A stretch of DNA of 44,039 nucleotides. Source: a phage. The position numbers were made by a program, and so were the translations under genes. The notes below the pieces were generated by a model. That model saw only the letters and a list, made by a program, of their open reading frames with translations. It did no database searches and was not told the DNA's origin. Location of the stretch: the NCBI GenBank assembly GCA_030821775.1, contig GCA_030821775.1_4700.1; one strand, written 5' to 3'. Below are positions 23,790-44,039 of the stretch, piece by piece. Positions within the stretch are counted from its first letter, which is position 1, and every line of letters begins with the position of its first letter.

Positions 23790-24170
23790 CACTAAGGTAA
23801 CACTAAGACAGCAATAGATAGCCACTAAGCTAGTCACTAAGGTAGCTACTAAGGAAGTGACTAAGGTATTACTCAAGGTACACGTCAGGTAGTGCAGCGA
23901 GCGATAGCGAGCAATGGCGGGCAAATGGACAGATAGCCCACGCCCACACACGCTGTCAAGCGTCCCATAAGCGCCCTAAATGGCCCTGTGCCTGCACTAA
24001 GAGGCTTCACTAAGGCAATCACCTTGTCCAACACTAAGCCCACCCATAGGCTGTCCTAGGCCGTCTACCGCGTTCCACCTTACTAGTACACGGCAAAACG
24101 AGGACGGCCCTTGTGTACCACTAAGCTAGTACATGTGCCTGCACTAGTAAACTAGTACAACCAAGCCACC
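23790..24170. repeat. Short direct-repeat arrays in the non-coding genome-terminus region
   Basis: About 12 copies of CACTAAG(G) and relatives, four copies of ACTAGTACA, GCGAGC and GGCGAG triplets, and a 13-bp direct repeat TGTGCCTGCACTA at ~23987 and ~24134; no ORF with SD on the coding strand. Confidence 0.55.
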
Positions 24171-24440
24171 CTATGGGGACATCCCGGCGAGGGCGAGGGC
24201 GAGAGAGCTGACACACGCCTATATCAAAATTTTGACTTTGGTTACTTTGTGTACATCCATAATGAATACATCAGGGCAGCCAATAGGCTACCTGCACAAG
24301 CTATAGCGATAACCTGTAGCCAATTCTTAGGGTCTGTAGGTTCATATGAAACCCAACCATCTTTCAGCATGTTACCTCCCTTGGAATACACTAAGGACAA
24401 ACCTAAGTCTGCCCTTGTTTATACTAAGATATTAACCTGC

Positions 24441-24590
24441 TTACGCAGAAGATGCAGAAGGTTTCTTCATGGCACGACGTTGAACATCCTTGGCAATGGT
24501 ATAAGCCTGCTTAGGGTCACGTCCTGATTGAATAAGCTCTTCTGTGTTCTGGAGTACAGCAGCTTGCTTAACTGATTTTATTAAGGGCAT
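24441..24590 (-). CDS. Small ORF (49 aa) after the distal tailspike gene
   Basis: Hand-translated MPLIKSVKQAAVLQNTEELIQSGRDPKQAYTIAKDVQRRAMKKPSASSA; AGGAGG SD overlaps the tailspike stop. Last ORF before the terminal region. Confidence 0.35.
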   Translation of the reverse strand: MPLIKSVKQAAVLQNTEELIQSGRDPKQAYTIAKDVQRRAMKKPSASSA

Positions 24591-24601
24591 TCAACCTCCT
24601 A

Positions 24602-26314
24602 CTACTTTGCAACCCAACCTTGAGCAGATGTACCAGATTCTTTAATGTACAATGTACTACCACCAGACCCATTAATACCAGTTGCCAAAGAACCGACAGG
24701 TGCACCTACACCTAAAGTTGTAGGATTGCCATTTAGTCCATAAACAATCACCGTACTAGAACCGACTCCTTGGTTATTCTGAGGTGCTTGCGTACCATAG
24801 CAATCATTGCCAATTAGTTTAATATTGGAGCAAGAAGAAGTAACACAAATACCAAGGCTTGGCTTGTTAGGGCTTTCTCCATCTACTCCAATATTACCTT
24901 CTACTAGGATGTTGTTAGCTCCTGTGTCTATACTAATGAAGTGTCTACCTGCTTCAGCGGTAGATACTTCCTTCATATTATTAGCTTTAATCACTAGACC
25001 GCTAGCCTTGCAGTTTACATGAATACCATATTGCCCTAATTTAGAGAAGATATTACGACTAAGTATACCTTCTCCTGATAAACCAGTACCAATGAATGTA
25101 GTAGCATCAGACTCACCTAACCAAATCCCACTACCTCTTCCGTTTTCCCAAGTATTACCTTCGATGTGGTATTTTGTCCCAAAGCGTAAACCGATTAACC
25201 CTAAGCCACCAGAGCCTGTATTACCTTTTACAATTAAATTCTTACACCACCTTGCATCTACACCATAGGATACATCCCCTGTGAGGATCATAGTATTATT
25301 AGAAATTTCAATATGGTCATGCCAAATGTCACTAATATCGGTAAAAGGCCAAGATGGTGCATCAATTAGCACTGGTGCTCTTACGCCATCAAAAGTACAA
25401 CCTACAACACTACCTTGTCGAGTCCCTTGCGGTTTAGTTTGAGAGGAGACAGGTGTAACATGAACGCCTCTTGCATTAGAGTTTCTAAAGGTGCAACCAC
25501 GTACTGTCCAGTTTTTCCAGTTAAATACACGTACACCTGCAAAGAGAGCACCATCTGTAGTGCAATTCAAGATACGGATATTGTTGCCCTGTACACCATA
25601 AGCTGAGGCGTGATTTCCGATTAGTGCACCATAACCTCCAAACCCGGATTCTGGGTTTGGACCAGCATAGCAATTCTCCACCAGCATACCACTAGACTGC
25701 ACATAGTGACCAACTGTAATAAGTCCTGGGTCTAACTGTATAGCCTCTGAGAAGCTACGACTGCCTGTATTCTTAAACCCTAGGAATTTACAATCACGAA
25801 TAACTACGTTGTTCCAATCTGCTAAATCTATGGCGTGGTAGTCCACTACATTGTTAACTGTTATGCCTTCAAACTTCAAATCATTATTACTAGTAGATGC
25901 AAATACTACAAAAGGTGTATCCCCTTTAGTGTGACCATTGCCTTCATAGACACCTCCACTGACTGTTACATTACTAGCTTGCCTTTGTGATAATCTGAAT
26001 AGCGTATCTCCTGTTTCGTAGTCACGTACAAATGTTACACCTTTAGCAACCTTGAAGTGTGTATTAGCAAATATCTCAACAGTACCACTGAGTTTATATT
26101 CGCCAGCTTTAGTGACTGATACAGTACCACCGCCTAGCAATCTGACCGCATTGAATGCAGCTTGAAGGGCTTGCCTGTTGTCATTAGAAGAGGGATTAAC
26201 TCCAAAATCCGCAACATCTATTGTATCCGATAGTTTATCAGATAGCAGGCGCTCAATAGTACCTGTTAGTTTACTCTTGTACTTCACCAAGTAAGCACTT
26301 AATCTTTGAAGCAT
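24602..26314 (-). CDS. Tailspike 2: beta-helix polysaccharide depolymerase
   Basis: 570-aa ORF with AAGGAGG SD; N-terminal pectate-lyase-3-like motif (DVADFGVNP...), many Gly/Asn-rich repeat turns typical of right-handed parallel beta-helix tailspikes; terminal position as in SP6/K1-5. Confidence 0.7.
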   Translation of the reverse strand: MLQRLSAYLVKYKSKLTGTIERLLSDKLSDTIDVADFGVNPSSNDNRQALQAAFNAVRLLGGGTVSVTKAGEYKLSGTVEIFANTHFKVAKGVTFVRDYETGDTLFRLSQRQASNVTVSGGVYEGNGHTKGDTPFVVFASTSNNDLKFEGITVNNVVDYHAIDLADWNNVVIRDCKFLGFKNTGSRSFSEAIQLDPGLITVGHYVQSSGMLVENCYAGPNPESGFGGYGALIGNHASAYGVQGNNIRILNCTTDGALFAGVRVFNWKNWTVRGCTFRNSNARGVHVTPVSSQTKPQGTRQGSVVGCTFDGVRAPVLIDAPSWPFTDISDIWHDHIEISNNTMILTGDVSYGVDARWCKNLIVKGNTGSGGLGLIGLRFGTKYHIEGNTWENGRGSGIWLGESDATTFIGTGLSGEGILSRNIFSKLGQYGIHVNCKASGLVIKANNMKEVSTAEAGRHFISIDTGANNILVEGNIGVDGESPNKPSLGICVTSSCSNIKLIGNDCYGTQAPQNNQGVGSSTVIVYGLNGNPTTLGVGAPVGSLATGINGSGGSTLYIKESGTSAQGWVAK

Positions 26315-26399
26315 GTAACCTCCTTTTCTGAAAGGCTACCACCATGATAACCTTTAAGAAAAGTTGCGTGAAAAGCAGTGCTTACGCACTGCCTGTTGC

Positions 26400-28298
26400 T
26401 TACTTAGGCAGGGAAGCTAGTGCTTCCTGCATACGCTTAATAGTCCGCCGCATCAACGCAGCCTCTAATATCAGTACTTCCTCGTAACGAATACCGTAGC
26501 GGGAACCTGCTGGTGTAATCAGTTTACGAGAGCCATTGGCATCTTCCTCGTATACATCATCCCAACTGTCGAAGCACAAGAAGCCATAGCGATGTGCATC
26601 TATACCGTGACGTTCGAAAGCCTCCTTAGCTCGCTGAGCGATGATGCCAAAGTGCCATCTAGCTGAGTCTACACCCTTCTCCTCAATTCGGTCCAAGTAC
26701 TGAAACTGCACAAAGTCAACTTCAGACCAAGCATCCAGTAAAGCATCTGAGATAATAAGAGGCTCTGTTTTATCCCTAGCATCTGAGACAACAGTGAATG
26801 CTGATTGAGTAAAACCGCCAGACCACACTCGATCGGCGGAACCTAATGCGTATGTACCAGTACTATTTGGGGTCATTGCATTAGCACCTAACTGCAAATA
26901 GCCTTCTCTACTGGTAGAAAGACGCACGTTACCGTTGGTGAGGGACACTGTCCGATAAGTACCATCAGAAGTAAATAGGCGAACTTGAGAAGAAGTACCC
27001 CCACCTACAGCTAATGACACAGCACCGTCCCCAAGCATTCTGTACTTATCAGCAGAAGTAAGAGCGCCAGAAGGGGGTGACATGGACTTAATCCGCCATT
27101 CGAACCTACCTGACATACTACCTATGTACTGCCCTAAGGCAGGTGCGTGCACTACGTTACTATTATTAGTGCCGTCAATAGTAGCTGCACCGGCAATAGT
27201 ACTAGCAGAACTGAGAAGGTCGTTTCTCCTGCCAGGGTGCTTTACCTCTACGAAGTTACGTGTAGAGCCGGATTCGAAAGTAATAACACCTGTAGCACTG
27301 TAGCTAGGAAATACAGACGCATAGTTGTTATTAGCTGTACCTATAAAGCGTGCAATTGTAGCAGTCTGCTTTTGTCCTAAAGAGTTAGTACCATCACATC
27401 CTGACATAAGCACATTATTTATGACGTTATCAGAACCCTCTACTGTAACACCATGAGCCTGCCCAGCATCAGAAGTTGAGTAATCTACGAGCACGTCTGA
27501 GATTAAGTTCGTACTTCCTTTGCCTGCAACAACCGCTGCATACTTAGGGTTATTAGCCATCACCCCCTTGATAAGGTTATTAGAAGGAGCTATTGGCCCT
27601 TCAGTGCCGTTGTAAGTTACATGCTGACAATCTGTCCCTATAACATTACTGACTATGTTGTAACTGGCTTTACCTTTCAACTCTACTGCTCCGAACTGAG
27701 GGTAGTTCTTAGCAATGACGTTATCTATGAGGGAGTTAACTGAGGAATCAGCAAGTACGCATCCGGCTGCCTTATTAGTAGCATAGCCGGAATAGCTACC
27801 TCGAATGCCTTTAATCATAAGTCCATCCGGTGGCGCACCATTAGGGTATGCGATTAAACTGAAACCAATACCTTTAACGTCTGAGAAGTTAACGTCACTT
27901 ACAGTAACATCACTTCCACCAGCAAGGGATACCTGCTGTCCCTGAGTTGTATCAGTCGCCTTATTACTTTCTACCGTAATATTACTTAAGCGACCTGCAC
28001 GTAGATTGTTAAATACTAGGTAGTTACCTGTACTTGAACGGTGACTTAGCACGCCACTACCCCTGCCGTCTAAGTTACAGTAATTACTATTAATACCAGA
28101 GCTAGAGAATACACCATCTGAGACTGTGACAGCTTTCTGAGAGTTTAATGAAGCAGCTATAACCTCCGTATCATCAGTAGTGGCGTCACCTGCAGCACCA
28201 AACGGCTTTGATGTTAAAACTCTCGCATCAAGGTACTCATACAAAGATTGTCCTTTATGCAAGATTCCTTCAGTATTAGGTTTGGTTAATTTAGCCAT
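26400..28298 (-). CDS. Tailspike 1: depolymerase with C-terminal intramolecular chaperone domain
   Basis: Track ORF 26400..28358 begins at TTG; the ATG at 28298 (MAKLTKP...) has an AGGAGA SD. N-terminal FGAAGDATTDDT motif, beta-helix repeats, and a C-terminal ~128-aa domain (SDARDK...GIIAQRAKEAF...) resembling the self-cleaving chaperone (peptidase S74) of endosialidase and K5 lyase tailspikes. Confidence 0.75.
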   Translation of the reverse strand: MAKLTKPNTEGILHKGQSLYEYLDARVLTSKPFGAAGDATTDDTEVIAASLNSQKAVTVSDGVFSSSGINSNYCNLDGRGSGVLSHRSSTGNYLVFNNLRAGRLSNITVESNKATDTTQGQQVSLAGGSDVTVSDVNFSDVKGIGFSLIAYPNGAPPDGLMIKGIRGSYSGYATNKAAGCVLADSSVNSLIDNVIAKNYPQFGAVELKGKASYNIVSNVIGTDCQHVTYNGTEGPIAPSNNLIKGVMANNPKYAAVVAGKGSTNLISDVLVDYSTSDAGQAHGVTVEGSDNVINNVLMSGCDGTNSLGQKQTATIARFIGTANNNYASVFPSYSATGVITFESGSTRNFVEVKHPGRRNDLLSSASTIAGAATIDGTNNSNVVHAPALGQYIGSMSGRFEWRIKSMSPPSGALTSADKYRMLGDGAVSLAVGGGTSSQVRLFTSDGTYRTVSLTNGNVRLSTSREGYLQLGANAMTPNSTGTYALGSADRVWSGGFTQSAFTVVSDARDKTEPLIISDALLDAWSEVDFVQFQYLDRIEEKGVDSARWHFGIIAQRAKEAFERHGIDAHRYGFLCFDSWDDVYEEDANGSRKLITPAGSRYGIRYEEVLILEAALMRRTIKRMQEALASLPK

Positions 28299-28382
28299 GC
28301 TATCTCCTATTACTTCCCAACCCTCCCCATGAAGATTGGCTAGTAATAGGCCGCTCAAAAGAACGGCACTATCTTATCTCTT

Positions 28383-28400
28383 CTATAGTGTCTCCTAAAT
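28383..28400 (-). promoter_or_regulatory. SP6-type phage promoter upstream of the tailspike genes
   Basis: Plus CTATAGTGTCTCCTAAAT ~85 nt upstream of the tailspike 1 start. Confidence 0.7.
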
Positions 28401-28429
28401 CTGAAACCATTGATACATAAAGGTATGTA

Positions 28430-28615
28430 TTATTTATAACCGCGTTCTAGTGATAAAATGTACAGTCCAAGTTGTGTAGCATCAGGCTTGCTAAAGCAGA
28501 CCTTATCGTCTACTTCGTACACTGCCGTCAGCGTCGGCTTGGTTGGGCGTTCTGGTAACGCCGTCCCGCACCCGGAAGTGGTCAGCGAACCAATCAGCAG
28601 GATTGTCGCTAGCAT
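28430..28615 (-). CDS. o-spanin (Rz1-like outer-membrane lipoprotein)
   Basis: Track ORF 28430..28678; from the internal ATG the product MLATILLIGSLTTSGC... has a signal peptide with lipobox (LTTSGC) and a short Pro-rich mature part; overlaps the i-spanin-like ORF out of frame. Confidence 0.55.
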   Translation of the reverse strand: MLATILLIGSLTTSGCGTALPERPTKPTLTAVYEVDDKVCFSKPDATQLGLYILSLERGYK

Positions 28616-28712
28616 GATTCGCTTCACGTTGAGCCTCCTTCTGCTCTTGTTCTCGCTTGTAGGCAACCAGCAGGCCAAGTAGACCTGCCAGCACCTTAAG
28701 CAGCTTATTCAC
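28503..28712 (-). CDS. i-spanin-like protein (N-terminal transmembrane helix)
   Basis: 69-aa ORF with one N-terminal hydrophobic helix (LLKVLAGLLGLLVAY) then a charged region; alternative start and no SD; shorter than typical i-spanins. Confidence 0.4.
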   Translation of the reverse strand: MNKLLKVLAGLLGLLVAYKREQEQKEAQREANHASDNPADWFADHFRVRDGVTRTPNQADADGSVRSRR

Positions 28713-28968
28713 AGCCTACGGCTTGGCAGATAACACTGGTAACTGCATCGGCAGTCTGAGCACCAAACTCAACACCCATGCCAACAGAAACCAACGCCAC
28801 TACCAAACCTACCAGTGCTGCGACTACCTTCTTACTCTTTAACAGCCTCACAACCAGCCCTCGCTTTCCATTCGTTCAGAAGGTGAGTATAGTTCTGGAA
28901 GTCAGTGTAGTTTCCAGCTTCACAGGCCTCCTTTACCTTACGCTCACAGTATGCAATGCAACCCTTCA

Positions 28969-29313
28969 TTACCACCTCGCTTTGTTAGAGCGCACATCGA
29001 TGTGTGTGAAGTTCGGGTAAGCACCAATGCCGTACTTGTCTGGGTACTTGTTGCATAGGTACTCTAGCACCTTGGTAGGTGATACACCTTTCACATTAAT
29101 GTCAGCAGCAATGCCAAGCAGATGCTTGGAGTCACGAGCGCCACCAACATTTGAGTTGTGTTTAGCACAGCGATGACCAGAGGTGATAACTACAGGCGCA
29201 TCAAAATGCTCACGCACATCTGTGACTACCTGTAATAACTCAGCATCAACAGTGGATGTACCGCACCCACAACGGCAAGCAAATTCTTTACGCTTGAAGT
29301 ATTTGTTAAGCAT
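28969..29313 (-). CDS. Endolysin, peptidase M15-type (L-alanyl-D-glutamate peptidase-like)
   Basis: Track ORF to 29367 starts at TTG; the ATG at 29313 has a GAGGG SD. Zn-binding pattern SGHRCAKHN...D...H typical of M15 endolysins; no signal peptide. Confidence 0.65.
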   Translation of the reverse strand: MLNKYFKRKEFACRCGCGTSTVDAELLQVVTDVREHFDAPVVITSGHRCAKHNSNVGGARDSKHLLGIAADINVKGVSPTKVLEYLCNKYPDKYGIGAYPNFTHIDVRSNKARW

Positions 29314-29315
29314 TA

Positions 29316-29600
29316 TTAGCCCTCTGCTGGAGTGACAGGTGACTCCACCATAGTAGTTGCATACCAAGGGTCAGTTGGTTCACTACCATGTGCAATAGCG
29401 ATGTACAAGGTGTTTGCTTTCTCTACAGCAACCATGGCACCTTTCTGCTTACCAGATAGGTGTTTAATGTTGATAGGATGATTTTTCTTCTGAAGGTCTT
29501 CTTCAGCAACAACAGGCATGGGGATTGCCGTTGCAATAGTTTGTACTGCCTTTACTCGAAAAGCCTGACCAGTAACAGAACCTGTACCATATGTAGCCAT
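29316..29600 (-). CDS. Small protein, paralog B of a tandem pair
   Basis: 94-aa ORF with GGAGG SD; shares the block SGKQKGAMV...IAIA with the adjacent ORF 29616..29891. Confidence 0.55.
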   Translation of the reverse strand: MATYGTGSVTGQAFRVKAVQTIATAIPMPVVAEEDLQKKNHPINIKHLSGKQKGAMVAVEKANTLYIAIAHGSEPTDPWYATTMVESPVTPAEG

Positions 29601-29615
29601 GTAATCCTCCTCTTC

Positions 29616-29891
29616 TTAAGCTAGGGTAATAGAAGTGCCCGCTGTAACGGACAGCCAATTAGAATCTTCTTTGCCATCAACTGCAATAGCAATACTTAAT
29701 ACACCAGATGAGTCAAGACACACCATAGCTCCTTTCTGTTTGCCTGATTTGGTGGCATCATTAATAACATTGCTTTTCTTACTAGCTTCCTCTTTTGAGA
29801 TTACCGGAAGCATTAGTGCTTCACTTACAGGTTGTAACTGCTTACGACCAGACTTACCTGTAATGGGTTTACTACTATAACTATCAGCCAT
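29616..29891 (-). CDS. Small protein, paralog A of a tandem pair
   Basis: Track ORF 29616..29951 trimmed to the ATG at 29891 (AGGAGAG SD), giving 91 aa MADSYSS...; homologous to the adjacent 94-aa ORF. Confidence 0.55.
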   Translation of the reverse strand: MADSYSSKPITGKSGRKQLQPVSEALMLPVISKEEASKKSNVINDATKSGKQKGAMVCLDSSGVLSIAIAVDGKEDSNWLSVTAGTSITLA

Positions 29892-30031
29892 TATCTCTCC
29901 TATTATGTAAATATAGTAAGGAATGAAGGAATAGGGTGTACAGGAGTACACCCATACTAAGGCATACCTAGATATAACCTAGGTTAACCTATATTATCCT
30001 TGTTATTTCTCTTATTCTCTGTGCCCTCCTC

Positions 30032-30049
30032 CTATAGTGTCCCCTAATT
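30032..30049 (-). promoter_or_regulatory. SP6-type phage promoter (variant) at the 3' end of the large terminase gene
   Basis: Plus CTATAGTGTCCCCTAATT overlapping the terminase stop codon. Confidence 0.6.
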
Positions 30050-31946
30050 ACCAAGTCCTTGATATTCTTGAAGAAAGAGTATTTCGAGACTTGACCTGCA
30101 TCGTGGGTGCATTTCCGTAGACACGGCGCTGCATTGCCACTGACGTATTCACCTGTTTTCGATAACCGTGGTCTTGTCCTGTGAAGAACTCACGGCGACG
30201 GCGAGGGTCATGCATCATCTCAAGATAATCGCGCATCTCCTGCGCTCTGAGGCGATTTATCCGGTTAACCTCGTCATAGTCTATCTGAGAAGTTAATTGC
30301 CGTATAGCGCCGTACAGTGCGTCTAAGCGGTCATCATGTCGCAGGCACCCTTTCTCCAGAGTGATGTTCGAGATTTGAGCAAACAGGCTGTAGCTCATCC
30401 GAACCTCCAGAGGGTAGTGCTGGATGCTGTCAATGTCCTGCTTGATCATCTCAGCGTTGAAGATGATGCGGTGCGCGGAGAACAGCGGTTCAAGCGTCTC
30501 GATGATACGAACCTCTTTCTGACCGTGTGCGTAGTCTTCTTTCAACTCGGCAGGCCACTCACGTTCGAAGTATGGCTTAATTACCGCCTCAAACGCACCG
30601 TGACCGAAGTTCTTCTCTATGAAGACCTCTTTTACCCCTGCGGCCTTAGCCTCGCGCACAATGCGACTGAGCGCGTTCTCGGAGTATCCGCCAGGCACAC
30701 CGAAGCATTTATAGACGTAGATGAACGTCCCCAACAGGAATACGATAGCCACGCCAGTTTCGTCGCCGTTCTTACCGCCACCAGCGGGGTCAATGTACAT
30801 GACGCGGCGCTGGATTGGTCGCCACTCATACGGGCGTGCAACCGGACGGTACAGGTAGTCTGTAGGCTTGTTACCGAAGCGCGGAGCGTCACCAATCAAG
30901 TTGAGAGTGTCGTTGCTCCAAGTCGGCATCTCTGGGACAACATCTGTACCAAAGCTCATGCAGATAAGCTGGTTCAGGCGCAGGGGGTAACGGTCTGCGT
31001 CCATCAGGCGCGTGTTCAGCATGAACTGTAGCTGGAACTTAGCAGTACCTTGTGAGATTTCCTTCTCAATCAGCTTCTCGTCATCGTACATTTCAGGGCA
31101 AGTTGGAGCGCCCTGAGTCCCGTCGATGCCATAACCTGAGCGCAGTGACGGGTCTTCCATCATATCTTGGCGAATCATCGGTGCGAGGAAGTCGCCGTAG
31201 CAAGCCTCCTGCTCTAACGTTGGATACCGTCCGGGCCAGATTCGAATCTGATAGCCACGCGCTGGTAAGTTGTTGTAGATGGAGTTCACGCTCTGAGGCG
31301 TACCAAGGTAGATGATGTCACCGAACTGGTTGATTGATTCAAACTCTTTGGTCAGGTCTTCCAGCAAGGCACGGCCTGCTGCGGTACGGCTGTTCTGCAA
31401 CGATTCAACGTCATCAGCCAAGATGATGTCTGCACGAGCACCCTGCATACCCGCCTCGATAGAGTAGCAGGCCACGGACGGAGACTTGTCACTACCACGT
31501 AATGTGTAGTGAATCTCAAAGCCTTTGATTGAAGCCTTGTCACCTGCGTAGATGTCAGGCAACATGAACTCCAAGAAGTCCAGACCACGGAAGATTTTGA
31601 TAACCCAGCCTGCGATTTCCTCTGCACGCTTGGCTGTCTGCGACACAATCATGATACGCTTGTGTGGTTCATGGATGATACGAAATACAGAGTAGATTGC
31701 AGCGATTGTGGTCTTAGCCTGTCCACGCTGTGCCTCTACCATTCGATATTTGTTCCCACTGAATAGGAACTTTAAGATATCCGCTTGTACCCGATTCAAA
31801 TCAGGGTTGCCAGTGATTAATGTATTGATTACAACCTGAGCGAATGACAGAAGTCCCTGCACGGTATACGGGAATGTTTGTTGTAACTCGTGCAGCAACT
31901 CCCAACGGGCAAGGGCTTCTGCCTGAGATTCCCTTGCTTTTGCCAT
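30048..31946 (-). CDS. Terminase large subunit
   Basis: 632-aa ORF with AAGGAGG SD; start overlaps the small-subunit stop (TAATG); ATPase and nuclease-sized domains; position as T7 gp19. Confidence 0.85.
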   Translation of the reverse strand: MAKARESQAEALARWELLHELQQTFPYTVQGLLSFAQVVINTLITGNPDLNRVQADILKFLFSGNKYRMVEAQRGQAKTTIAAIYSVFRIIHEPHKRIMIVSQTAKRAEEIAGWVIKIFRGLDFLEFMLPDIYAGDKASIKGFEIHYTLRGSDKSPSVACYSIEAGMQGARADIILADDVESLQNSRTAAGRALLEDLTKEFESINQFGDIIYLGTPQSVNSIYNNLPARGYQIRIWPGRYPTLEQEACYGDFLAPMIRQDMMEDPSLRSGYGIDGTQGAPTCPEMYDDEKLIEKEISQGTAKFQLQFMLNTRLMDADRYPLRLNQLICMSFGTDVVPEMPTWSNDTLNLIGDAPRFGNKPTDYLYRPVARPYEWRPIQRRVMYIDPAGGGKNGDETGVAIVFLLGTFIYVYKCFGVPGGYSENALSRIVREAKAAGVKEVFIEKNFGHGAFEAVIKPYFEREWPAELKEDYAHGQKEVRIIETLEPLFSAHRIIFNAEMIKQDIDSIQHYPLEVRMSYSLFAQISNITLEKGCLRHDDRLDALYGAIRQLTSQIDYDEVNRINRLRAQEMRDYLEMMHDPRRRREFFTGQDHGYRKQVNTSVAMQRRVYGNAPTMQVKSRNTLSSRISRTW

Positions 31947-32245
31947 TAAGCCTCCTTAGCGAAAGCGATAACCTTACCTTGTGAAGCCTGTTTCAACTGA
32001 GCCAGACGCTTAGACAGCTTGGATTCCTCCTGTTGTGCTGCTGGCGTAGCGGTGATGCCGTTATCCAGCACCCACTTACACATCGCACCAACATCCTTAC
32101 CGGACACTAGGCCGATTGTCGCATCAGGGTTATCTTCGATTGCATCTAAGATAGCCTGTGCTTTCTTGTTGAACATCTTCGTAATTGCATTGTGTAGAAT
32201 ACCTACATCATCTTCCGATGCAGCATGTCTGTTATGATTGCTCAC
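31946..32245 (-). CDS. Terminase small subunit (T7 gp18-like)
   Basis: 99-aa ORF, GTG start with GGAGG SD, immediately upstream of and coupled to the large subunit. Confidence 0.6.
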   Translation of the reverse strand: MSNHNRHAASEDDVGILHNAITKMFNKKAQAILDAIEDNPDATIGLVSGKDVGAMCKWVLDNGITATPAAQQEESKLSKRLAQLKQASQGKVIAFAKEA

Positions 32246-32423
32246 GTCTCTTCCTCCGTGCCTTAATCTTTCCCCACACCCAGTCGCAAATCTGTAACAT
32301 AGTCCAGATAGCAGTTAGAATGTAAACCCAGTTCTCCCAACTGACTCCAAGAAAGGTTGAGCTTGTCACTAAGACACTCGGAACCCACTTAAGGCCATCG
32401 GTGATTGCATCTGAGTTTACCAT
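32232..32423 (-). CDS. Holin (T7 gp17.5-like)
   Basis: Track ORF to 32483; the ATG at 32423 has an AAGGAGG SD and gives a 63-aa protein with hydrophobic segments and a highly basic C-terminus (KIKARRKRREQS); sits between tail fiber and small terminase as in T7. Confidence 0.55.
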   Translation of the reverse strand: MVNSDAITDGLKWVPSVLVTSSTFLGVSWENWVYILTAIWTMLQICDWVWGKIKARRKRREQS

Positions 32424-32433
32424 AGCAACCTCC

Positions 32434-33393
32434 TTATACCAGTTGAAGTTTAAACATGACAGTACATTCAGGTAACGGCTCATTGAATGTCACAGTAGAA
32501 CCATGAATCTCATACGCAGAGTCAGGCTGATACAGCCCATCAAGGTAAACATCAATGCGCTTGAATGCCGTAACAACATCAATTGACTGTGTACCTTCTC
32601 TGACCTGCTGGTGCATCAAGGTTGTATCACCAGCCGTAGGTGGAGTGAGGCGACTACCGATGAGTACATACAACTCATCTCCTGCTTGCAGAGGTTCTGA
32701 CAAGGAGATAACACCATGCCCAACGGATACAGCGCCAGCCAACTCGTGCTGAAAGACACCGTTGATGAAGACCATTGCATCTTTGAACTCATATGGAGGT
32801 TGGATGATTTGCTCTCCACCAGAGGCGACCATGTACCAAGGGACAGTTCGATGTGACACACCGGAGATCATGCCCTTCTTAAGACCTGCAATCTCTAGGT
32901 CTTGTGCCTTATTCCAATCTGTATGCTTTTTGTCTACAGAATCAAGCTGGCCTTTGTTCACAGCATCGGTTTCATTGATGCCAGCACCAAGGTTAGTGAT
33001 GCGATTCCCACCCATGTTAAGGTGGCTCTTTATGAAGTAACCATCTGGCAAGAAGCCATCAAGCAGTTCCTGAATAATCTCAAGTTGTTGTATGAAGTTG
33101 TTGTTCAAAGACTTCATATCCAGAACAACGTTACGGTCGAAGACAGCATACGGGTTGTCCTTCTCAACAATCCTGCGAATACGCATCTTACGACCACTTG
33201 CTGGGGCTACGTTAAAGGTAATCTGGTTGGTGCCAGACAACACCCAACCAGTTGCTTCAACCCAATCACTTCCATCCAACCACTCTACGTGAATGTCGGA
33301 AGCACGGATATAACCTTTATCATAGCCAGCGAAGCGGAAAGAGAACGTAGTCGTGCTACCATCACCAGTCACTTCGGTATAGGTATAACTCAT
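32434..33393 (-). CDS. Tail fiber / tailspike adaptor protein (T7 gp17 N-terminal domain-like)
   Basis: ~319-aa ORF; ATG at 33393 overlaps the upstream stop (ATGA); N-terminus resembles the tail-attachment domain of T7-like tail fibers; too short to carry its own receptor-binding domain. Confidence 0.7.
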   Translation of the reverse strand: MSYTYTEVTGDGSTTTFSFRFAGYDKGYIRASDIHVEWLDGSDWVEATGWVLSGTNQITFNVAPASGRKMRIRRIVEKDNPYAVFDRNVVLDMKSLNNNFIQQLEIIQELLDGFLPDGYFIKSHLNMGGNRITNLGAGINETDAVNKGQLDSVDKKHTDWNKAQDLEIAGLKKGMISGVSHRTVPWYMVASGGEQIIQPPYEFKDAMVFINGVFQHELAGAVSVGHGVISLSEPLQAGDELYVLIGSRLTPPTAGDTTLMHQQVREGTQSIDVVTAFKRIDVYLDGLYQPDSAYEIHGSTVTFNEPLPECTVMFKLQLV

Positions 33394-36300
33394 CAATCCT
33401 CCAATAGATCAACACTGGCTTTGGTCATCTGACCAATACCAATTGTGTTTGCCAGCGGAACCAGACGGCGCACCTTGTCTACCAGTTGGCGTGTAGATAC
33501 GTCATCGTCACCGTTAGCATACTTAACCAATGCCTTGGAAAAGTCCACGGCATCACCAATAACACCAGCGCCTGCTACGAGTTCACCAAAGCCTTGTTGC
33601 TGGAAGCCCATACGTCCCGGTGCTTGCATTAGCGCATCCGGCATTAAACCGAACGTAGCCAAGGTATCACCAGCTAGGCCGAAACCTGCAACTTGTGGTA
33701 GCTTGTTGAACACACCCATAGCAATATTGTTGGTGTCAAACTTCTCTTTCAGGAACTTGTCACGGTCCTCTCGACCAATCGCCTGCATCTGCATCTGTGT
33801 TGCATAGGAAGCGTAGCCAAGCAGCGAAGACCAAGCAAGGATTTGTGCCGCTTGAATCTTGTCACCACGTAAGTCATGAATGAGTTGCTTCTCGATAGAG
33901 ACAATGGAGAATGATTTGAACTGAGTAAGTGCTTTGCCCCACCATTTGTTCATCCAGATACCTTCGTCACCAATGAAGTTACGCTGGATTAACCTACCAG
34001 ACATACGGCGTACTGCGATGCCTACGGTTTCCCGAAGGTCTGGTTCCATCACATCGAAGTTCATCATACGAACCTTCTCGCCATTATATTCAGCATAAGC
34101 TGGGTTTTCGTCGAAGTGGCGCTGTAGGCGCTTCATGGTTGCTTCATTCAGGCCAATCTCATCCAAGTCAGCCTGCGGCAACTTACGTCCACCAGACAGG
34201 TGTTCTTTAAGACGCTTGTTGATTGAACGTGCCACAATCTTCTCGGAACCACCCTGAATTGCCTTGAAGCCAGATAGCCAAGTGTTCACGCGACTACCCA
34301 TCGCAAGCCCGTTGTCTACGATTTGTGACAGCTTATTGAGGTTGTCAGCAGTCTCACCGAACTCGTCATGGCGTGTGTTCCAACCTGTCAGCCAGTTGTC
34401 TTCGCCAATGTATCCTACTAACTCCTCCATCTCACGCAGTTCTGGCTCAAGCAGTTCGCCTTGTGCTGTACCTCCTTTACGACCAGCGCGTGACCTGAGG
34501 AACTTAGTGGCAGGGACAGACTTCAGCACCGTACCTACACCCATCTTGGTTATGGCTCGTGCAAGCTCTGGGATCTGAGCAAAGCCCATCTGTCCAAGCC
34601 GCAAGAGGCCAGTCACCTCACGGAGTCGGCGTGTGCCTCTGACAATGCCAGCGTTAGGGTCTGCGTCAATAGTGTTCCCGTACATTAGGCGAACAGAATC
34701 ACGTAGCATATCTGCCTCTGCACGTAGCTGTTTGATAGCCTTGGCATCTGAGCCAGCCATGTTGCGCCCAGCGCGTTCTGCTGCGTCGATTGCGTTGAAC
34801 ACGGACTGACGGGTAGGGAAGCCCATAGCCGCCAGTGCAGCGCCCCCTGCGGCCTCTTTGCCGTAGTTCTCAACCAGTGTCGCCACGTTGGTGTTCAGCA
34901 AGTCCTGTACTTTCATACCGCCGTACTCTGCCTGCGTATTGATGCCCATGCTGGCTTTAGCACGGTTCGATACAGACTCAGCCATCTCTGCCAACTCCGT
35001 ACCTTCAATAAAGTTGTCAATGATGGAGTCAGGGACACCAGCGGATTTCAGGTCAGCAATGAGTTGCGCCTGCTGCTGCTGTGAGATAACGCGGTCGAAG
35101 GCTACACGGCTAGACAAGGTAGAGTCGGAGGCACGGATATACTGGACTTTAGCGAGTGCATCTGCTGACTTCTTACCTAGCTTGTACTTGCCTGTCTGAT
35201 AACCTTTGGACAGCAAAGCAATCACTGCCTCGCTTGAGCCAAGACGGTTAACAGCCTCGGTGATTTTGATGCCGTCGTAGATAACTGGCATGTAGTCACG
35301 AGCCGACTGCACGTTCTCGAAGCCTGCTTCACCAGCCTGCTTGCGTATCTCAAGTGCTTTCTTCAACTTGTCAGCCATACCCTCGGCAGCCAACTTAACA
35401 CCCTTGGGAGTATCTTCTGGAATACCTTTGACAATTGCTGTGTAGACTTGGTTGTTGAAGTCACGAGTTACGGCAGGGTTAAGGTAATCAATGGCCCGTA
35501 AGTTATTGTCCTTGAGGAACTGAGAGAAGCCATCGTTGTAGCGGTTACGATCTGCTGTACGAATCAGGTTGTTATACACATCAGACAAGATTGAAGCTGT
35601 CTTCCCTTGATACGCACCACCTTGTGCATTCTCAAGCAGGCGTAAGCCAAGACCACGGAACACAGGGTTCTTCGAGTTAAGAATAACGGAAGACACAGAA
35701 CCAAGCCCAAAGGTAGATACAGGCTTAACGTCAGACTGATATGCCTCACGAGCCAAGTCATCCATCAGGTCTTCCATCTTATCAGAGAGGTAGAATTGCT
35801 CACCTTGAATCTCTGAGCCTTTAACACGGGCTGCTGACAGGGAATCATCAGGCGCTGCCTTGGCTTCCACCTCTGCCTGTGCAGCCTCGTCAAACTTCTG
35901 AGTCGGCGTCTTCTTAGCAGCCTGCTCTGCCTTGATAGCAGCAACTGCCTCCTTCACTGCACTGTGCATATCAACCTTACGTGACGGCACTTCCAGTCCA
36001 AGCTCTTTGATTTGCTGCTCACGCGTTAGGCTTGAGAATCTCTTAAGCTCTGCCTTGGCTGCTGGTACGTTCTCTACAGCTCTCAGCTTAGCCTGTAGTT
36101 CTTCCAAGCGACGAGTGGCATCAGCGATTGGCGCATCGAAACGACGAGCCAGTGCCTGCAATTCAACCTTAGTGTCTAATGCCTCTACCTTGTTACGCGC
36201 TGCACCTTTCTTGGCTGCATGTTCTGCCCGTGCTGCTGTACGAGTTTCCTGTAATGCAGCCAGTTCACTCTCGGCTTGTCTAATGTCAGCCTTGAGTCTT

Positions 36301-37193
36301 CCCTTCTCCTTGGCGCTCATACGGATATTGGCGTCACCTTTCAGCTTCTCTGTATGCTGGAAGATACCCATATCCAAGTCAACTTCACGAGCCATAAGCG
36401 GTTCATAGTTACGAGCAGCCATATACGCGTCATACTCCATCGCCTCACGGACGGCTTTAGATGCAGACACGTCGAACTCATCAGCACCACGAATGACAGT
36501 ATCAAGGTCATCTACGGTTGCACGAGGTGTGTCTGTGTCAACACCACGGACACGCTGGCGAGTAGCCATCCCAATAGTGCCACCCATCACCATGCCGAAC
36601 CCAGCGGCAGCTAGTACGTCATCAGCTCCACGCTGGTAGTCACCCTGAGCCAGAACTGCTTCAAGTGAAGCGTTCTCAGCACCAGCCAATGCAGCCGTCT
36701 TGATAACTCGTCCTAACCGACCAACCTTGAATGCACCAGCAACCGGAGCGGCAGCGAGTGAAGCCGCCCAGCCAACAGGGTCGAAGATACCAGCGGCAAG
36801 CTGTGCAGCGAATCCAGTAAAACCATTACGGGCAAGAATCTCGTTACGGTCCTTGTCTGCCTGAGCGTTAGACATACGGAACTGTAACTCTTCTGGAGAT
36901 TGTGCGCCTTTAACAATCTCTTGCGCTATCTCATAACCGTGGAGTTTTGACAAATCTTCTACGGTTGACTCTGGAACAGCGTAACCATCTTGTGGTGTGA
37001 ACTCAGCAGTGCTACGTTCATACGCACGTTGACCACCATAGAGCATCCATTCGTTCTCTAAGGCAGTTTGCATTACCTTATCCTTCGCTCGTTGTTCCTC
37101 CAACTTACGCTCGGCCTCGGCAATCTGAGAGAAGGTAGGAGGTAACTGCCTTTGAGTTACACCTACCCAGCTTTGGCTAGTCAAATCAGCCAT
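33393..37193 (-). CDS. Internal virion protein, large (T7 gp16-like ejection protein)
   Basis: 1266-aa ORF with AAGGAGG SD, last and largest of the internal virion protein trio. Confidence 0.8.
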   Translation of the reverse strand: MADLTSQSWVGVTQRQLPPTFSQIAEAERKLEEQRAKDKVMQTALENEWMLYGGQRAYERSTAEFTPQDGYAVPESTVEDLSKLHGYEIAQEIVKGAQSPEELQFRMSNAQADKDRNEILARNGFTGFAAQLAAGIFDPVGWAASLAAAPVAGAFKVGRLGRVIKTAALAGAENASLEAVLAQGDYQRGADDVLAAAGFGMVMGGTIGMATRQRVRGVDTDTPRATVDDLDTVIRGADEFDVSASKAVREAMEYDAYMAARNYEPLMAREVDLDMGIFQHTEKLKGDANIRMSAKEKGRLKADIRQAESELAALQETRTAARAEHAAKKGAARNKVEALDTKVELQALARRFDAPIADATRRLEELQAKLRAVENVPAAKAELKRFSSLTREQQIKELGLEVPSRKVDMHSAVKEAVAAIKAEQAAKKTPTQKFDEAAQAEVEAKAAPDDSLSAARVKGSEIQGEQFYLSDKMEDLMDDLAREAYQSDVKPVSTFGLGSVSSVILNSKNPVFRGLGLRLLENAQGGAYQGKTASILSDVYNNLIRTADRNRYNDGFSQFLKDNNLRAIDYLNPAVTRDFNNQVYTAIVKGIPEDTPKGVKLAAEGMADKLKKALEIRKQAGEAGFENVQSARDYMPVIYDGIKITEAVNRLGSSEAVIALLSKGYQTGKYKLGKKSADALAKVQYIRASDSTLSSRVAFDRVISQQQQAQLIADLKSAGVPDSIIDNFIEGTELAEMAESVSNRAKASMGINTQAEYGGMKVQDLLNTNVATLVENYGKEAAGGAALAAMGFPTRQSVFNAIDAAERAGRNMAGSDAKAIKQLRAEADMLRDSVRLMYGNTIDADPNAGIVRGTRRLREVTGLLRLGQMGFAQIPELARAITKMGVGTVLKSVPATKFLRSRAGRKGGTAQGELLEPELREMEELVGYIGEDNWLTGWNTRHDEFGETADNLNKLSQIVDNGLAMGSRVNTWLSGFKAIQGGSEKIVARSINKRLKEHLSGGRKLPQADLDEIGLNEATMKRLQRHFDENPAYAEYNGEKVRMMNFDVMEPDLRETVGIAVRRMSGRLIQRNFIGDEGIWMNKWWGKALTQFKSFSIVSIEKQLIHDLRGDKIQAAQILAWSSLLGYASYATQMQMQAIGREDRDKFLKEKFDTNNIAMGVFNKLPQVAGFGLAGDTLATFGLMPDALMQAPGRMGFQQQGFGELVAGAGVIGDAVDFSKALVKYANGDDDVSTRQLVDKVRRLVPLANTIGIGQMTKASVDLLED

Positions 37194-37226
37194 ATTACCT
37201 CCTTAGTTAATGCCATTCATAAAGGC

Positions 37227-37244
37227 TGTCCAACATGTTAGACA
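37227..37244. repeat. Conserved palindrome, copy P8, between two internal virion protein genes
   Basis: TGTCCAACATGTTAGACA (one mismatch) with complementary AAGG/CCTT flanks, in the 66-bp gap between the two large internal virion genes. Confidence 0.7.
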
Positions 37245-37259
37245 ACCTTGAGTATGACA

Positions 37260-40205
37260 CTAATTGATCTTCACTCGCCCAATCTTAGTGTTTGCAGCGA
37301 GTTTGCCAGCGGCAGGCGGGTATACCTGCATCCAGCCGTTCTTGTCGATCTTGTTGAAATGAGACTTACTGACGAATGCCTCGGACATTTCACCAGCGAA
37401 CTTAACGTACATAGAGCCATCTGCACGAGTTTCTACTTCGCTAATCTTAGGAACAGCTCCACCACTCTGTGCTAGGTTGTAGGCTTCTGCACGACGAACC
37501 AATAGGCCAGTTTGACGCTTACCTTCGGAAGATGCAGTGGCTAGCATTTCAATAAACCCATCAGTAAACCGACCAGCCTTGAACGCTTCATATGCACGAG
37601 GTGACTTCTGGATGCCACCTCTACCAAGGTTGTAGCTTAAATCCATGATACCACGCTGTACACCGGGATGCATTTTGTCAAAAGGCACAGCCCAATCACG
37701 AGTAGAAGGTACATGGCTCTTCATGTCCTGCTTGAGAAGTTTCATAGCTCGCTCTGGTGTCAGTTGAGACTGACCAGCTTTGAACGGAACTTTCTCTGAA
37801 CCAATCATGATGTAGCCATTACGCTTCTCTTCGGCAGTCAGGAAGTGACCATATCCAACCGAATGACCATGTGCATCTTTGTACGGTGTGTACACGCCAG
37901 CAACTCGATCAAAGCCAACGTTCATCTGGTTCTCTGTCTTGGCTACATAGTCGAAGAATGTCTGGTTCTTCTTCTCGTAGCCGAACTCAAAGTTAGCAGG
38001 TAGGTTCTCACCAGCAGCAAAGGCAGGAGACATAAGGAAGTCAGCAATACCACGCTTGCCTACTGTCTTAGCAGTAACGTCACCTTTCTGCATAGGCTGC
38101 GCTTGGTAGCCACCAGCACCCCACATGCGCATCTGCTGTGCTTCAAAGTTCTTCTTAGCATCATCACGCTCTTTCACTTTAGCGTCGTAATGTTCCTTGA
38201 GCAACGCTTGTCCTTTAATTTCAGACAGTGGCATTGCTGGAGTGAGAGGCGTTCTGGCAGAACCCCCACGGATTGTGAACATACCACGCTTAGAATCAAC
38301 ATCAATGTAGATGTCAGATTCATCTAAACCTCCTGAATTATCAAGCAATTCCTGCTTGTGGTTATCGATGTACTGACGTAATGCTGTAGGTACATCATTC
38401 TGGTTTACACCTATAGTGTCACCTAAACCACGAGCATCACCTTTGACCAACACACCTTGAGTGAAGAAACCTTCGGAAAGCTGCGTATACTGAGATGTCA
38501 GATAGGATTGCAAGTGACGCTTGATGGTGTCATTGTTGTGACCTGCAATCTTCATCGCACGGGCGATAGTCATTGCATCATCCATCACAAGTGCTTTACC
38601 AGTGTCGCTCATGTTATCTCCAAGAGTTAACCAGCTACCACCAGCAATATCATCAACCACACCCTCAACATCACTGGACAATTCTTTGAGAACTGAGCCT
38701 TGCAACTTCTCACCTTTTGCAACGTTCTGAGCAAACTCAATCGCCTGACCCACGTTGTATCCCATCTGTAACGCCTTGTCGTAGTTCTCCACAAAGGCGT
38801 ACTCCTTGTCGCCCATCACTGCACGGCGGGAGTCTTCTGGAATAGAGTCACGCGCCATCATGATTGTCTTGAGCGCCTCCGGCTCTGCTGTCATATCCTT
38901 AAGGTTAGCAGAAGACATTTGCATCAGTGAGTCGTAACGAGCCTTGATGTTCGGGTCTTTGATGAGTTGCTGCCCCAGCTTGGCATATCGCATGATTTCG
39001 TACTTACCACGGATAGCCTCTGCCGCCTCTCCGGTTGCTCCGGTTCGTGCAATCTCATCGTTTGCCAGCTTGGTGAACACACCAGCGATACCTTCTGCAT
39101 AGTCGTTACGGTCTTTCTCACTAATGTCTTGCAAGCCAAGAGGTGAACCAGATTGACCGCGTGCAAGCAGGTCTTGCATCTTGGCTTCCTCTGCGTTCTT
39201 CTTAGCTACCTTGTCGAACAGTGATTTGATTTCACCGTCAGACCAAGCAGTGCCTCCAGAGATTTGGTTGTGATTCTGCATGATTTGCAGCATCTCTTCT
39301 CGGTCAAGCTCTCCAGCTTCGAATGCCTGAATCGCTGCATCCTTCTTCTCGAAGAGTGCAACCTGATTCTGAGCAGCCCAGTTACGGTTAGCTTGAATCT
39401 CGGCAGTCTGTAGCTTGCCATTCCGCTGGTACAGGGACACACCGTTCTTGTCTTTCAGAGACTTCGTTGCTTCAACAAAGGTGTCATCACCAACAGCAGC
39501 ACGCTCCATAGCAATCTGAGCAATCATCTCTTCATACTCAGGCTTGGTAAGCTGCATGGTGATAGCTTCCTGCTGTAGCTGGTGTAATGCGTCATCAAGA
39601 GCACCACCAGACAGACCTTCTGTAACCATCAGGACACGAGACTGCATAGCCTGTGTGCGCTCTTGTGCTTCACGTTCCAGCTTGGCGCTCATACGGGCAG
39701 CGAAGATTTTAGGTTGCTGCTCCATGAATGCGTTAGACACAGTACGCATGGTTTCTTTGTCCCCGATAAGTCCGGGGTACTGCTGGTATACTTTCTCCTG
39801 AATCTGGTTGCGGGAGTTAACAACCATTTGCTCCCACTCTTGGTCTGTGCCAGTGAAGCGCTTTGCTGCATCCTGTAATGCGATAGATTGTCCTATCACG
39901 TCGTTCTGCAACTGCACCAGCATATGTGCACGAGCGCCACCAACAGTGGCATCATCGGACGGCATCAGACCCTGCAAGGCTCGGTCATATTGACGAACCT
40001 TGTCATCCTCTACCGCCTGATTCATGATTTCCGTGCCTACCTTGGCGAATGCACCAGCGGCGCTAAACAGGTCATCAAGGAATGCGGAGCCTGTACGCTC
40101 CAGCACTGGCTCGCTTACCTGAATAGCGGAGGTGGAAGCACCACGCGGTGCTCCCTTAGATTGTACTTGCTGCAAGCCTTGCACTGCTTGCCGTTCAATT
40201 GCCAT
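37260..40205 (-). CDS. Internal virion protein with C-terminal T4-lysozyme-like domain (gp15-like position)
   Basis: 981-aa ORF with AAGGAG SD; C-terminal region contains YKDAHGHSVGYGHFLT, closely resembling the T4 lysozyme block YKDTEGYYTIGIGHLLT. Confidence 0.75.
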   Translation of the reverse strand: MAIERQAVQGLQQVQSKGAPRGASTSAIQVSEPVLERTGSAFLDDLFSAAGAFAKVGTEIMNQAVEDDKVRQYDRALQGLMPSDDATVGGARAHMLVQLQNDVIGQSIALQDAAKRFTGTDQEWEQMVVNSRNQIQEKVYQQYPGLIGDKETMRTVSNAFMEQQPKIFAARMSAKLEREAQERTQAMQSRVLMVTEGLSGGALDDALHQLQQEAITMQLTKPEYEEMIAQIAMERAAVGDDTFVEATKSLKDKNGVSLYQRNGKLQTAEIQANRNWAAQNQVALFEKKDAAIQAFEAGELDREEMLQIMQNHNQISGGTAWSDGEIKSLFDKVAKKNAEEAKMQDLLARGQSGSPLGLQDISEKDRNDYAEGIAGVFTKLANDEIARTGATGEAAEAIRGKYEIMRYAKLGQQLIKDPNIKARYDSLMQMSSANLKDMTAEPEALKTIMMARDSIPEDSRRAVMGDKEYAFVENYDKALQMGYNVGQAIEFAQNVAKGEKLQGSVLKELSSDVEGVVDDIAGGSWLTLGDNMSDTGKALVMDDAMTIARAMKIAGHNNDTIKRHLQSYLTSQYTQLSEGFFTQGVLVKGDARGLGDTIGVNQNDVPTALRQYIDNHKQELLDNSGGLDESDIYIDVDSKRGMFTIRGGSARTPLTPAMPLSEIKGQALLKEHYDAKVKERDDAKKNFEAQQMRMWGAGGYQAQPMQKGDVTAKTVGKRGIADFLMSPAFAAGENLPANFEFGYEKKNQTFFDYVAKTENQMNVGFDRVAGVYTPYKDAHGHSVGYGHFLTAEEKRNGYIMIGSEKVPFKAGQSQLTPERAMKLLKQDMKSHVPSTRDWAVPFDKMHPGVQRGIMDLSYNLGRGGIQKSPRAYEAFKAGRFTDGFIEMLATASSEGKRQTGLLVRRAEAYNLAQSGGAVPKISEVETRADGSMYVKFAGEMSEAFVSKSHFNKIDKNGWMQVYPPAAGKLAANTKIGRVKIN
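38412..38429 (-). promoter_or_regulatory. SP6-type promoter-like sequence inside the gp15-like gene
   Basis: Plus CTATAGTGTCACCTAAAC, one mismatch at the upstream end, within the coding sequence. Confidence 0.5.
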
Positions 40206-40214
40206 TTAAACTCC

Positions 40215-40883
40215 TTATCTTCCGATGCCAGAAGAGTAGGTTCGAGATTCCTTCCATGCAGTGCTAAGGTCTTTACCCAAATTAGAACCTGTCACGTAGG
40301 AGGTTGCAGCACTACCAAGGCCGGACACAAGTGAACCGAATGCAGACGGCTTACTGAATGACCGTTGTTGCATCTGTCCACCTGTCTGAATAGCCTTGGC
40401 TTGGTTGATGAAACCTTGCTGCTGATTCTCGAAGTTATCTACGATCTGTGCTTGGTTACGCCCAGCTTGACCAGACAGGTCATTAAGCATAGACGAAATT
40501 GATGCGCCTCCAGTACCGGATGCGCCAGCCATGAGTTCAACCTGTGCCTGCTGCTGTAGCAGGGATACTTGGTTTTGAATCAAGTCTTGGTGGAACTCTT
40601 TATTAGCCACACGCTCAGCATCGCCAAGTTGACGGTACTGCTCACGCGTGTTTATCATTTGCTGCTTCCACTGCTCCTTCTGAGCCTTCTTAAGCGCCTT
40701 GGCTTGGTCGCCGCCAGTTAAGAAACCAGTTAGGCTACTCAACAAAGAGCCACCCATAGCCAAGAGGCCAGAGTTGGAGAAGCCAGCGGTACTCCCGCCC
40801 AGCCAGCCCATAACAGAACTGGCTACGCCACTACTGCCAACCATGCTGCCAAGAGAAGCAGCGGCAGTTCCAACGATTGCCAT
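40215..40883 (-). CDS. Internal virion protein, small (gp14-like)
   Basis: 222-aa Gly/Ser/Gln-rich ORF with GGAGGG SD, start overlapping the tail tubular B stop; first of the internal protein trio. Confidence 0.6.
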   Translation of the reverse strand: MAIVGTAAASLGSMVGSSGVASSVMGWLGGSTAGFSNSGLLAMGGSLLSSLTGFLTGGDQAKALKKAQKEQWKQQMINTREQYRQLGDAERVANKEFHQDLIQNQVSLLQQQAQVELMAGASGTGGASISSMLNDLSGQAGRNQAQIVDNFENQQQGFINQAKAIQTGGQMQQRSFSKPSAFGSLVSGLGSAATSYVTGSNLGKDLSTAWKESRTYSSGIGR

Positions 40884-44025: not shown

Positions 44026-44039
44026 GAATCCTCCTAAAC

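Follow-up and report, generated by a model that had tools for sequence, protein, structure and literature searches.

A C-terminal self-cleaving chaperone domain predicted on the K5 lyase tailspike of an SP6-like podophage

Introduction

The DNA considered here (NCBI GenBank assembly GCA_030821775.1, contig GCA_030821775.1_4700.1), referred to below as the window at its full length of 44,039 nucleotides, is the whole genome of a podophage of the SP6/K1-5 type, reverse-complemented and circularly permuted. It carries the gene of a tailspike, and the 3′ end of this gene, at positions 26400-26786, is the subject of this study. An initial annotation, made from the letters alone, had assigned the last ~128 residues of the spike to the peptidase S74 chaperone domain, which was expected to cut itself off at a conserved Ser. 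Our analysis leaves very little doubt that this 3′ end codes for a C-terminal intramolecular chaperone domain (CIMCD, Peptidase S74) and that the tailspike carrying it is the K5 capsule lyase of an SP6/K1-5-like podophage.

Domains of this kind have been studied in several homologous proteins. The C-terminal domains of three chains come together, act as a template for the triple-beta-helix stalk and, after the trimer has folded correctly, cut the bond before a Ser residue; their release exposes the tip of the spike and stabilises the trimer (PMC4690869, PMC8326128). According to the paper on the structure of MyRF, K5 lyases are one of four phage protein families with the domain (PMC8326128). 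It is a published domain on a published protein, which is picked up by a standard Pfam scan, and it opens no new question: the domain, the Ser-Lys mechanism and the presence on K5 lyases were all published in 2007-2010. The mildly new material lies in the context only, namely in a mosaic backbone and in a cleavage-site allele of the Kayfunavirus type.

Results

Read on the minus strand, positions 26400-26786 translate into SDARDKTEPLIISDALLDAWSEVDFVQFQYLDRIEEKGVDSARWHFGIIAQRAKEAFERHG...QEALASLPK*, that is, 128 aa and a stop codon. The residues and the span quoted in the initial annotation were correct; the strand had not been stated. On the plus strand of the same positions the reading frame is riddled with stops, no open reading frame (ORF) of at least 50 aa was found, and a scan for sigma-70 promoters and terminators gave no excess over shuffled sequences; a coding or RNA feature on that strand was accordingly rejected. 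The segment forms the 3′ end of an ORF at 26400..28358 on the minus strand. This frame, starting with TTG and comprising 652 aa, was rejected as the true gene, and the start was placed at the ATG at 28298 because AGGAG is located 8 nt upstream of it, the orthologous genes of phages K1-5 and K5A are annotated at exactly 1899 nt, the resulting protein of 632 aa begins with MAKLTKP, and the longer ORF would enclose an SP6-type promoter. MAKLTKP is given as a known adaptor-binding sequence in the part of PMC6872550 that cites Leiman 2007. The lyase gene has its own SP6-type promoter ~80 nt upstream. In the window, 12 such promoter sites are present, with 0 expected by chance; all of them, as well as all large ORFs, lie on the minus strand.

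Judging from its sequence, the full-length protein is a K5 capsule lyase tailspike. At the DNA level the gene is 97.4% identical to the “K5 lyase” gene gp46 of phage K1-5, over 100% of its length; for the corresponding gene of phage K5/K5A the value is 96.7%. The proteins share 95-96% of their residues, with 24 of 632 differing from K1-5 gp46 and 29 of 632 from K5A, and only 4 of the 24 differences to K1-5 fall in the C-terminal 128 aa. The family profile phrog_14895 is matched end to end (1-632/632, E=0), and the crystal structure of the K5 lyase (PDB 2X3H) aligns to aa 1-505 (E=0), the deposited chain ending at the residue aligned with Ser505. The motif AVELKG is present and includes both Glu206 and Lys208, reportedly catalytic in KflA (Thompson 2010); close to them, position 210 is occupied by Lys, where K1-5 and K5A have Thr. 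Lyase activity on the K5 (heparosan) capsule is expected from the sequence identity. For annotation, the match assigns the spike to the K5 (heparosan) capsule lyases and predicts the capsule type of the host. Besides the adaptor-binding N-terminus and the C-terminal domain, the protein shares with K1-5 gp46 and K5A KflA its length and the position of its gene upstream of a second spike gene. It differs from them by the 24-29 substitutions, among them Thr504Val and Cys509Asp, and from K1-5 in the partner spike, which is the K1 endosialidase there and a beta-helix protein of 570 aa here. As a side observation, the K5 lyase gene of Escherichia phage EEc4 (ON210145.1 40497-42394) is annotated as two CDSs (coding sequences) of 1050 and 684 nt; the match is one base shorter than our query, which implies a frameshift or a sequencing error in the ON210145.1 record.

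The domain occupies aa 505-632 of 632, at the extreme C-terminus and directly after the triple-beta-helix stalk. The domain search that had been proposed for checking the initial annotation gave a match to PF13884 (“Chaperone of endosialidase”) with E=3e-13 and 50.3 bits, compared with a curated cutoff of 22. With the C-terminal 168 residues as query, a sequence search of the PDB matched all structurally characterised members: the chaperone domain of GA-1 gp12 (3GUD, E=2.9e-23), the endoNF chaperone (3GW6, E=1.6e-20), a tail spike protein (6EU4, E=3.6e-20), a phage tail fiber (7Y5S, E=1.4e-19) and pb1 of phage T5 (4UW8, E=1.9e-9). The fold was approached with an AlphaFold2 model of aa 455-632, calculated as a monomer of what is an intertwined trimer. 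Within the domain, the mean pLDDT (predicted local distance difference test) of 10-residue blocks was 73-95, with one block at 59, and a long helix was predicted at the C-terminal end (model residues 151-174); confidence was low in the stalk (model residues 1-48), as expected for such a monomer. Foldseek retrieved from the PDB 3GW6 (1.4e-10), 3GUD (5.5e-9, TM 0.77), 4UW8 (9e-8) and the ICA of MyRF (7DC3, 2e-4), and nothing besides these four under E=1e-3, the next match being at 0.5. The likeness to the endosialidase and K5-lyase tailspike domains that had been noticed from the letters is therefore borne out, the fold matching only solved chaperone domains and the MyRF ICA. The ratio of nonsynonymous to synonymous substitution rates (dN/dS), calculated against K1-5, K5A and Kayfunavirus R1 and resting on small counts, was 0.16-0.28 for the C-terminal domain and 0.42-0.63 for the mature part, and the low ratio of the former points to purifying selection on a domain that would be discarded.

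Several features of the active site can be located by alignment to characterised members (Table 1). Published Ser-Lys catalytic dyads are S911/K916 of endoNF and S1264/K1269 of T5 (PMC8326128, PMC4690869). Ser505 is aligned with position 911 of endoNF and with S1, the residue at which the 3GUD chain of GA-1 (SDERHK) begins, Lys510 is aligned with endoNF Lys916 and with K6 of GA-1, and the series S505-D-A-R-D-K510 also matches the S..K pairs of 6EU4 and 7Y5S. Cutting at a conserved Ser had been predicted, and Ser505 and Lys510 are in fact in register with endoNF, GA-1 gp12 and T5 pb1; the left edge drawn in the initial annotation, 26786, coincides with the start of the Ser505 codon, so that the boundary was exact to the codon. 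Conservation was evaluated in a panel of 12 sequences, consisting of this protein, K1-5 gp46 and ten tblastn matches from phages of different families (K1E, K1F, IME392, a Kagunavirus, an Aeromonas phage, an Ackermannviridae Serratia phage, a Webervirus, a Salmonella siphovirus, an Acinetobacter phage and a Przondovirus). Five residues are invariant in 12/12: Lys510 and, within the conserved core motif of the form (D/x)AR-x-H-x-G-x-x-AQ, which reads DSARWHFGIIAQ at aa 544-555, Asp544, His549, Gly551 and Gln555. Ser505 is kept in 11/12, the exception having Cys. This exception is found in Serratia phage vB_SmaA_3M (Ackermannviridae; MH929319.1 35462-36145), where Cys replaces the nucleophile Ser (ISTCDAERKTEP) and the Lys is kept; its tail protein possibly represents a Cys-Lys variant of the self-cleaving domain.

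The calculated masses are 66.96 kDa for the full-length protein (aa 1-632), 52.17 kDa for the mature part (aa 1-504) and 14.81 kDa for the released domain (aa 505-632). The first two values agree with 67 and 52 kDa in the literature on the 96%-identical K1-5 gp46: K1-5 ORF46 is entered in a review table as “67 / mature form 52 / trimer” (PMC5380687), and Lin et al. saw their recombinant K5 depolymerase, apparently from K1-5 (the phage grown there on the K5 strain), migrate at 52 kDa, “in accordance with expected sizes after proteolysis” (PMC5696595). The mature spike would comprise 504 aa, or 505 aa if the Ser stays, close to the ~500 aa that had been foreseen. Since the processing is already documented for the orthologue, the initial call is to be regarded as a correct annotation and not as a discovery. 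For a representative of the K5 lyases, Schwarzer et al. (2007) reportedly showed by experiment that the protein is cut at the conserved Ser, that a Ser-to-Ala exchange blocks this and that the domain can be exchanged between families. For expression of the enzyme this means that the C-terminal 128 residues should be kept and that a 52-kDa product is to be expected.

Table 1. Features at the tailspike locus and their positions in the window
Feature	Coordinates	Strand	Basis
K5 lyase tailspike gene, 632 aa + stop	26400..28298	minus	ORF; orthologue of K1-5 gp46, K5A KflA
Mature lyase of 52.2 kDa (aa 1-504), made up of adaptor-binding peptide, beta-helix lyase domain and triple-beta-helix stalk	26787..28298	minus	2X3H alignment, mass calculation
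CIMCD (Peptidase S74), Ser505-Lys632, 14.8 kDa, predicted release	26403..26786	minus	Pfam, PDB, dyad, fold
PF13884 Peptidase_S74 core, aa 505-565, profile positions 1-57 of 58	26604..26786	minus	Pfam match
Ser505, codon TCA, predicted nucleophile and cleavage site (scissile bond Val504-Ser505)	26784..26786	minus	alignment to 3GUD, 3GW6, 2X3H
Lys510, codon AAA, predicted general base of the Ser-Lys dyad (Ser +5)	26769..26771	minus	panel and endoNF alignment
Adaptor-binding heptapeptide MAKLTKP, seven codons	28278..28298	minus	SE29 homology stops at 28279
SP6-type phage RNA polymerase promoter ATTTAGGAGACACTATAGAAG	28380..28400	minus	1 mismatch to SP6 consensus
Hairpin GCAGTGC-GTAA-GCACTGC followed by TTTT, 8 nt past the stop, in the 85-nt spacer between the spike genes	26375..26392	minus	
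Second tailspike, 570 aa, beta-helix, starts MLQRLSAYLVK (undecapeptide type)	24602..26314	minus	ORF, Pfam, PHROG
Putative adaptor, 320 aa, T7-tail-fibre N-terminal domain	32434..33396	minus	profile matches

The neighbourhood of the lyase gene contains a second spike gene and, farther away, the gene of a putative adaptor. The second tailspike has Beta_helix and NosD matches in Pfam and matches phrog_2234; in the PDB it has only one weak relative (3ZPP, E=6e-9). It is common to 22 Vectrevirus records at 96-98.7% identity. An S74 domain was looked for in this protein as well and rejected, none being found by Pfam or PHROG search. By analogy with K1-5 gp37 (PMC6872550), the adaptor would carry both spikes. 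The coding end of the chaperone domain adjoins the 85-nt spacer between the two spike genes, which is 88% conserved with Salmonella phage SE29 and thus across genera. Its hairpin was rejected as a significant structure, the 71-nt fold not being significant alone against shuffled sequences (z=-1.3); we list it only as an element that is conserved and resembles a terminator.

Discussion

From the processes described for the homologues, the following course can be proposed for this spike. Three 67-kDa chains would be made and, after correct folding of the trimer, Ser505, activated by Lys510, would attack the Val504-Ser505 bond in each chain. The 14.8-kDa domain would then come off, and the mature spike of 52 kDa, now kinetically stable, would dock on the adaptor protein via its N-terminal MAKLTKP.

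One close counterpart of the domain is that of endoNF of phage K1F (3GW6). The two proteins have in common the family, the fold, the Ser-Lys dyad with its +5 spacing and the location C-terminal to a triple-beta-helix stalk. In endoNF the domain is released autocatalytically after trimer folding, and the same scheme is proposed for the K5 lyase considered here. In contrast, the domains are only ~33% identical, endoNF has an insertion of ~25 residues in the middle of the domain, and mature endoNF is a sialidase beta-propeller whereas the protein considered here is a lyase beta-helix. The best sequence and structural match to the domain alone is GA-1 gp12 (3GUD), which is ~40% identical and starts at the homologous Ser. 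The chaperone of the L-shaped fibre protein pb1 of T5 (4UW8) likewise has an S/K(+5) dyad (PMC4690869), but the cargo of these two is unrelated, being an appendage of a Bacillus phage and a siphovirus fibre, respectively. Even the eukaryotic MyRF ICA (7DC3) is similar in fold and in Ser-Lys self-cleavage (PMC8326128), although it shows 18-19% identity, belongs to a membrane transcription factor and cleaves in a way that is uncoupled from an upstream stalk.

Release of the domain in this particular allele has to be weighed separately, and four points count against it or against its details. The residue before the scissile bond (P1) is Val504, and Thr stands at this position in K1-5, K5A, G9, EEc4 and 10 of the 12 panel sequences. 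In the homologues a stalk Arg of the neighbouring chain completes the active site (R897 in endoNF, R1250 in T5, at -14 from the Ser), and the sole nearby Arg here is R490 at -15; K1-5 and K5A share this R-A-W spacing, and in the HMMER alignment endoNF R897 stands opposite V491 and not R490. The fate of the Ser is disputed, since T5 and K1F lose it with the domain and phi29 was modelled with the Ser retained (PMC4690869, section 3.7); the sequence of 2X3H includes it as the last residue. Finally, cleavage of the Val504 allele is carried over from its orthologues, so that it can only be called probable.

On these grounds one could suppose that the protein has a genuine S74 homologue that is not released in this allele and stays as a C-terminal knob, for example because of Thr504Val and Cys509Asp. 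In favour of such a view, in addition to the unusual P1 residue, aa 464-515 (26754-26909), at the junction of stalk and cleavage site, contain a cluster of 11 out of the 24 substitutions relative to K1-5 gp46. Furthermore, the sequence deposited as PDB 9VVR, which has the VVSDARDK allele, spans the whole domain; a deposited sequence says nothing on the residues that were modelled, and no paper on 9VVR was found in a literature search. Against this, neither the dyad of Ser505 and Lys510 nor any of the invariant core residues is altered, and the mechanism described for T5 has Lys1269 activating Ser1264 and an oxyanion hole formed with Asp1239 and Thr1263 (PMC4690869). The allele also recurs in independent phage lineages: the K5-lyase spikes of two Kayfunavirus phages, R1 and ZG49, which are 843 aa long, have SAFTVV/SDARDK (the slash marking the predicted cut), as does 9VVR, the counterpart of this sequence in Vectrevirus being AAFTVT/SDARCK, and Val at P1 is shared by 6EU4 and Klebsiella phage KP1801. 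We therefore judge Val504 to be compatible with cleavage. In addition, a T5 fibre left uncleaved fails to block adsorption (PMC4690869). Considering all these points, retention of the domain seems very improbable to us. It would moreover be selected against, because uncleaved forms are reportedly less stable (Schwarzer, 2007). The other possibility, a chance or low-complexity match of a C-terminus that is merely part of the lyase fold, found no support in the data and can practically be dismissed, since it is already refuted by the Pfam match and the PDB sequence matches (E-values of 1e-13 to 1e-23 with curated profiles and with solved structures), by the crystal chain of the mature lyase (2X3H), which ends exactly at the start of the domain, and by a Foldseek search specific to chaperone domains.

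A self-cleaving chaperone domain thus remains our reading of the segment, and the question arises what it tells about the origin of the spike. The initial annotation had held that the domain “pins down” the lineage, and this claim did not stand. The 128 residues match the C-termini of at least 11 PHROG tail families, including a family of 1396 positions that equals T5 pb1 in length, as well as 607 phage records of podo-, sipho- and myoviruses infecting Klebsiella, Escherichia, Salmonella, Vibrio, Pseudomonas, Aeromonas, Serratia and Acinetobacter; 553 of the 607 are under 60% identity. By its distribution among sequences, the S74 domain is a promiscuous module. The lineage is set instead by the full-length match to the K5 lyase.

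Comparison of the whole window with related genomes indicates that the phage is a mosaic of the SP6-like type. At positions 1-22000, which hold the early and middle genes from RNA polymerase to capsid, the identity to any Vectrevirus is at most 82.8%. Positions 28359-44039, with the late genes for lysis, terminase, internal virion and tail proteins, are 93% identical to the Salmonella Zindervirus phages SE29 and PST_H2, and the two spike genes (region 24205-29316) are 97-98.7% identical to those of Vectrevirus phages of E. coli. Homology to SE29 runs to 28279, the end of the MAKLTKP codons, is then lost and comes back only at 26392-26282, that is, in the 85-nt spacer and the first 11 codons of the second spike gene. 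The boundaries of the cassette thus coincide with the hepta- and undecapeptide adaptor-binding sequences, which were described by Leiman et al. 2007 in the account given in PMC6872550. The spike cassette was swapped exactly at its 7- and 11-codon adaptor-binding peptides. A homologue of the 234-bp terminal repeat of K1-5 is present in a single copy at ~23934-24202, and the physical genome ends are for this reason probably near 23.9-24.2 kb.

Relative to the phage collection of August 2025, the phage likely belongs to an undescribed species. The cluster of substitutions at aa 464-515 hints at a patch of intragenic recombination. A fuller scenario, in which an undescribed mosaic species combines a K5-lyase cassette with a Zindervirus-like late backbone and its lyase is a recombinant with the stalk/cleavage junction of a Kayfunavirus (aa ~464-515, VVSDARDK), is offered tentatively, and we consider it rather doubtful in all its parts together. 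If the junction did come from a Kayfunavirus, the boundary of the chaperone domain would act as a natural recombination joint, as domain-swap experiments suggested.

Two adjacent small ORFs on the minus strand, at 29316-29600 (94 aa) and 29616-29951 (111 aa), look like paralogues of each other with the common motif SGKQKGAMV...IAIA; their counterparts in SE29 are labelled, implausibly, “acetyl-CoA acetyltransferase”.

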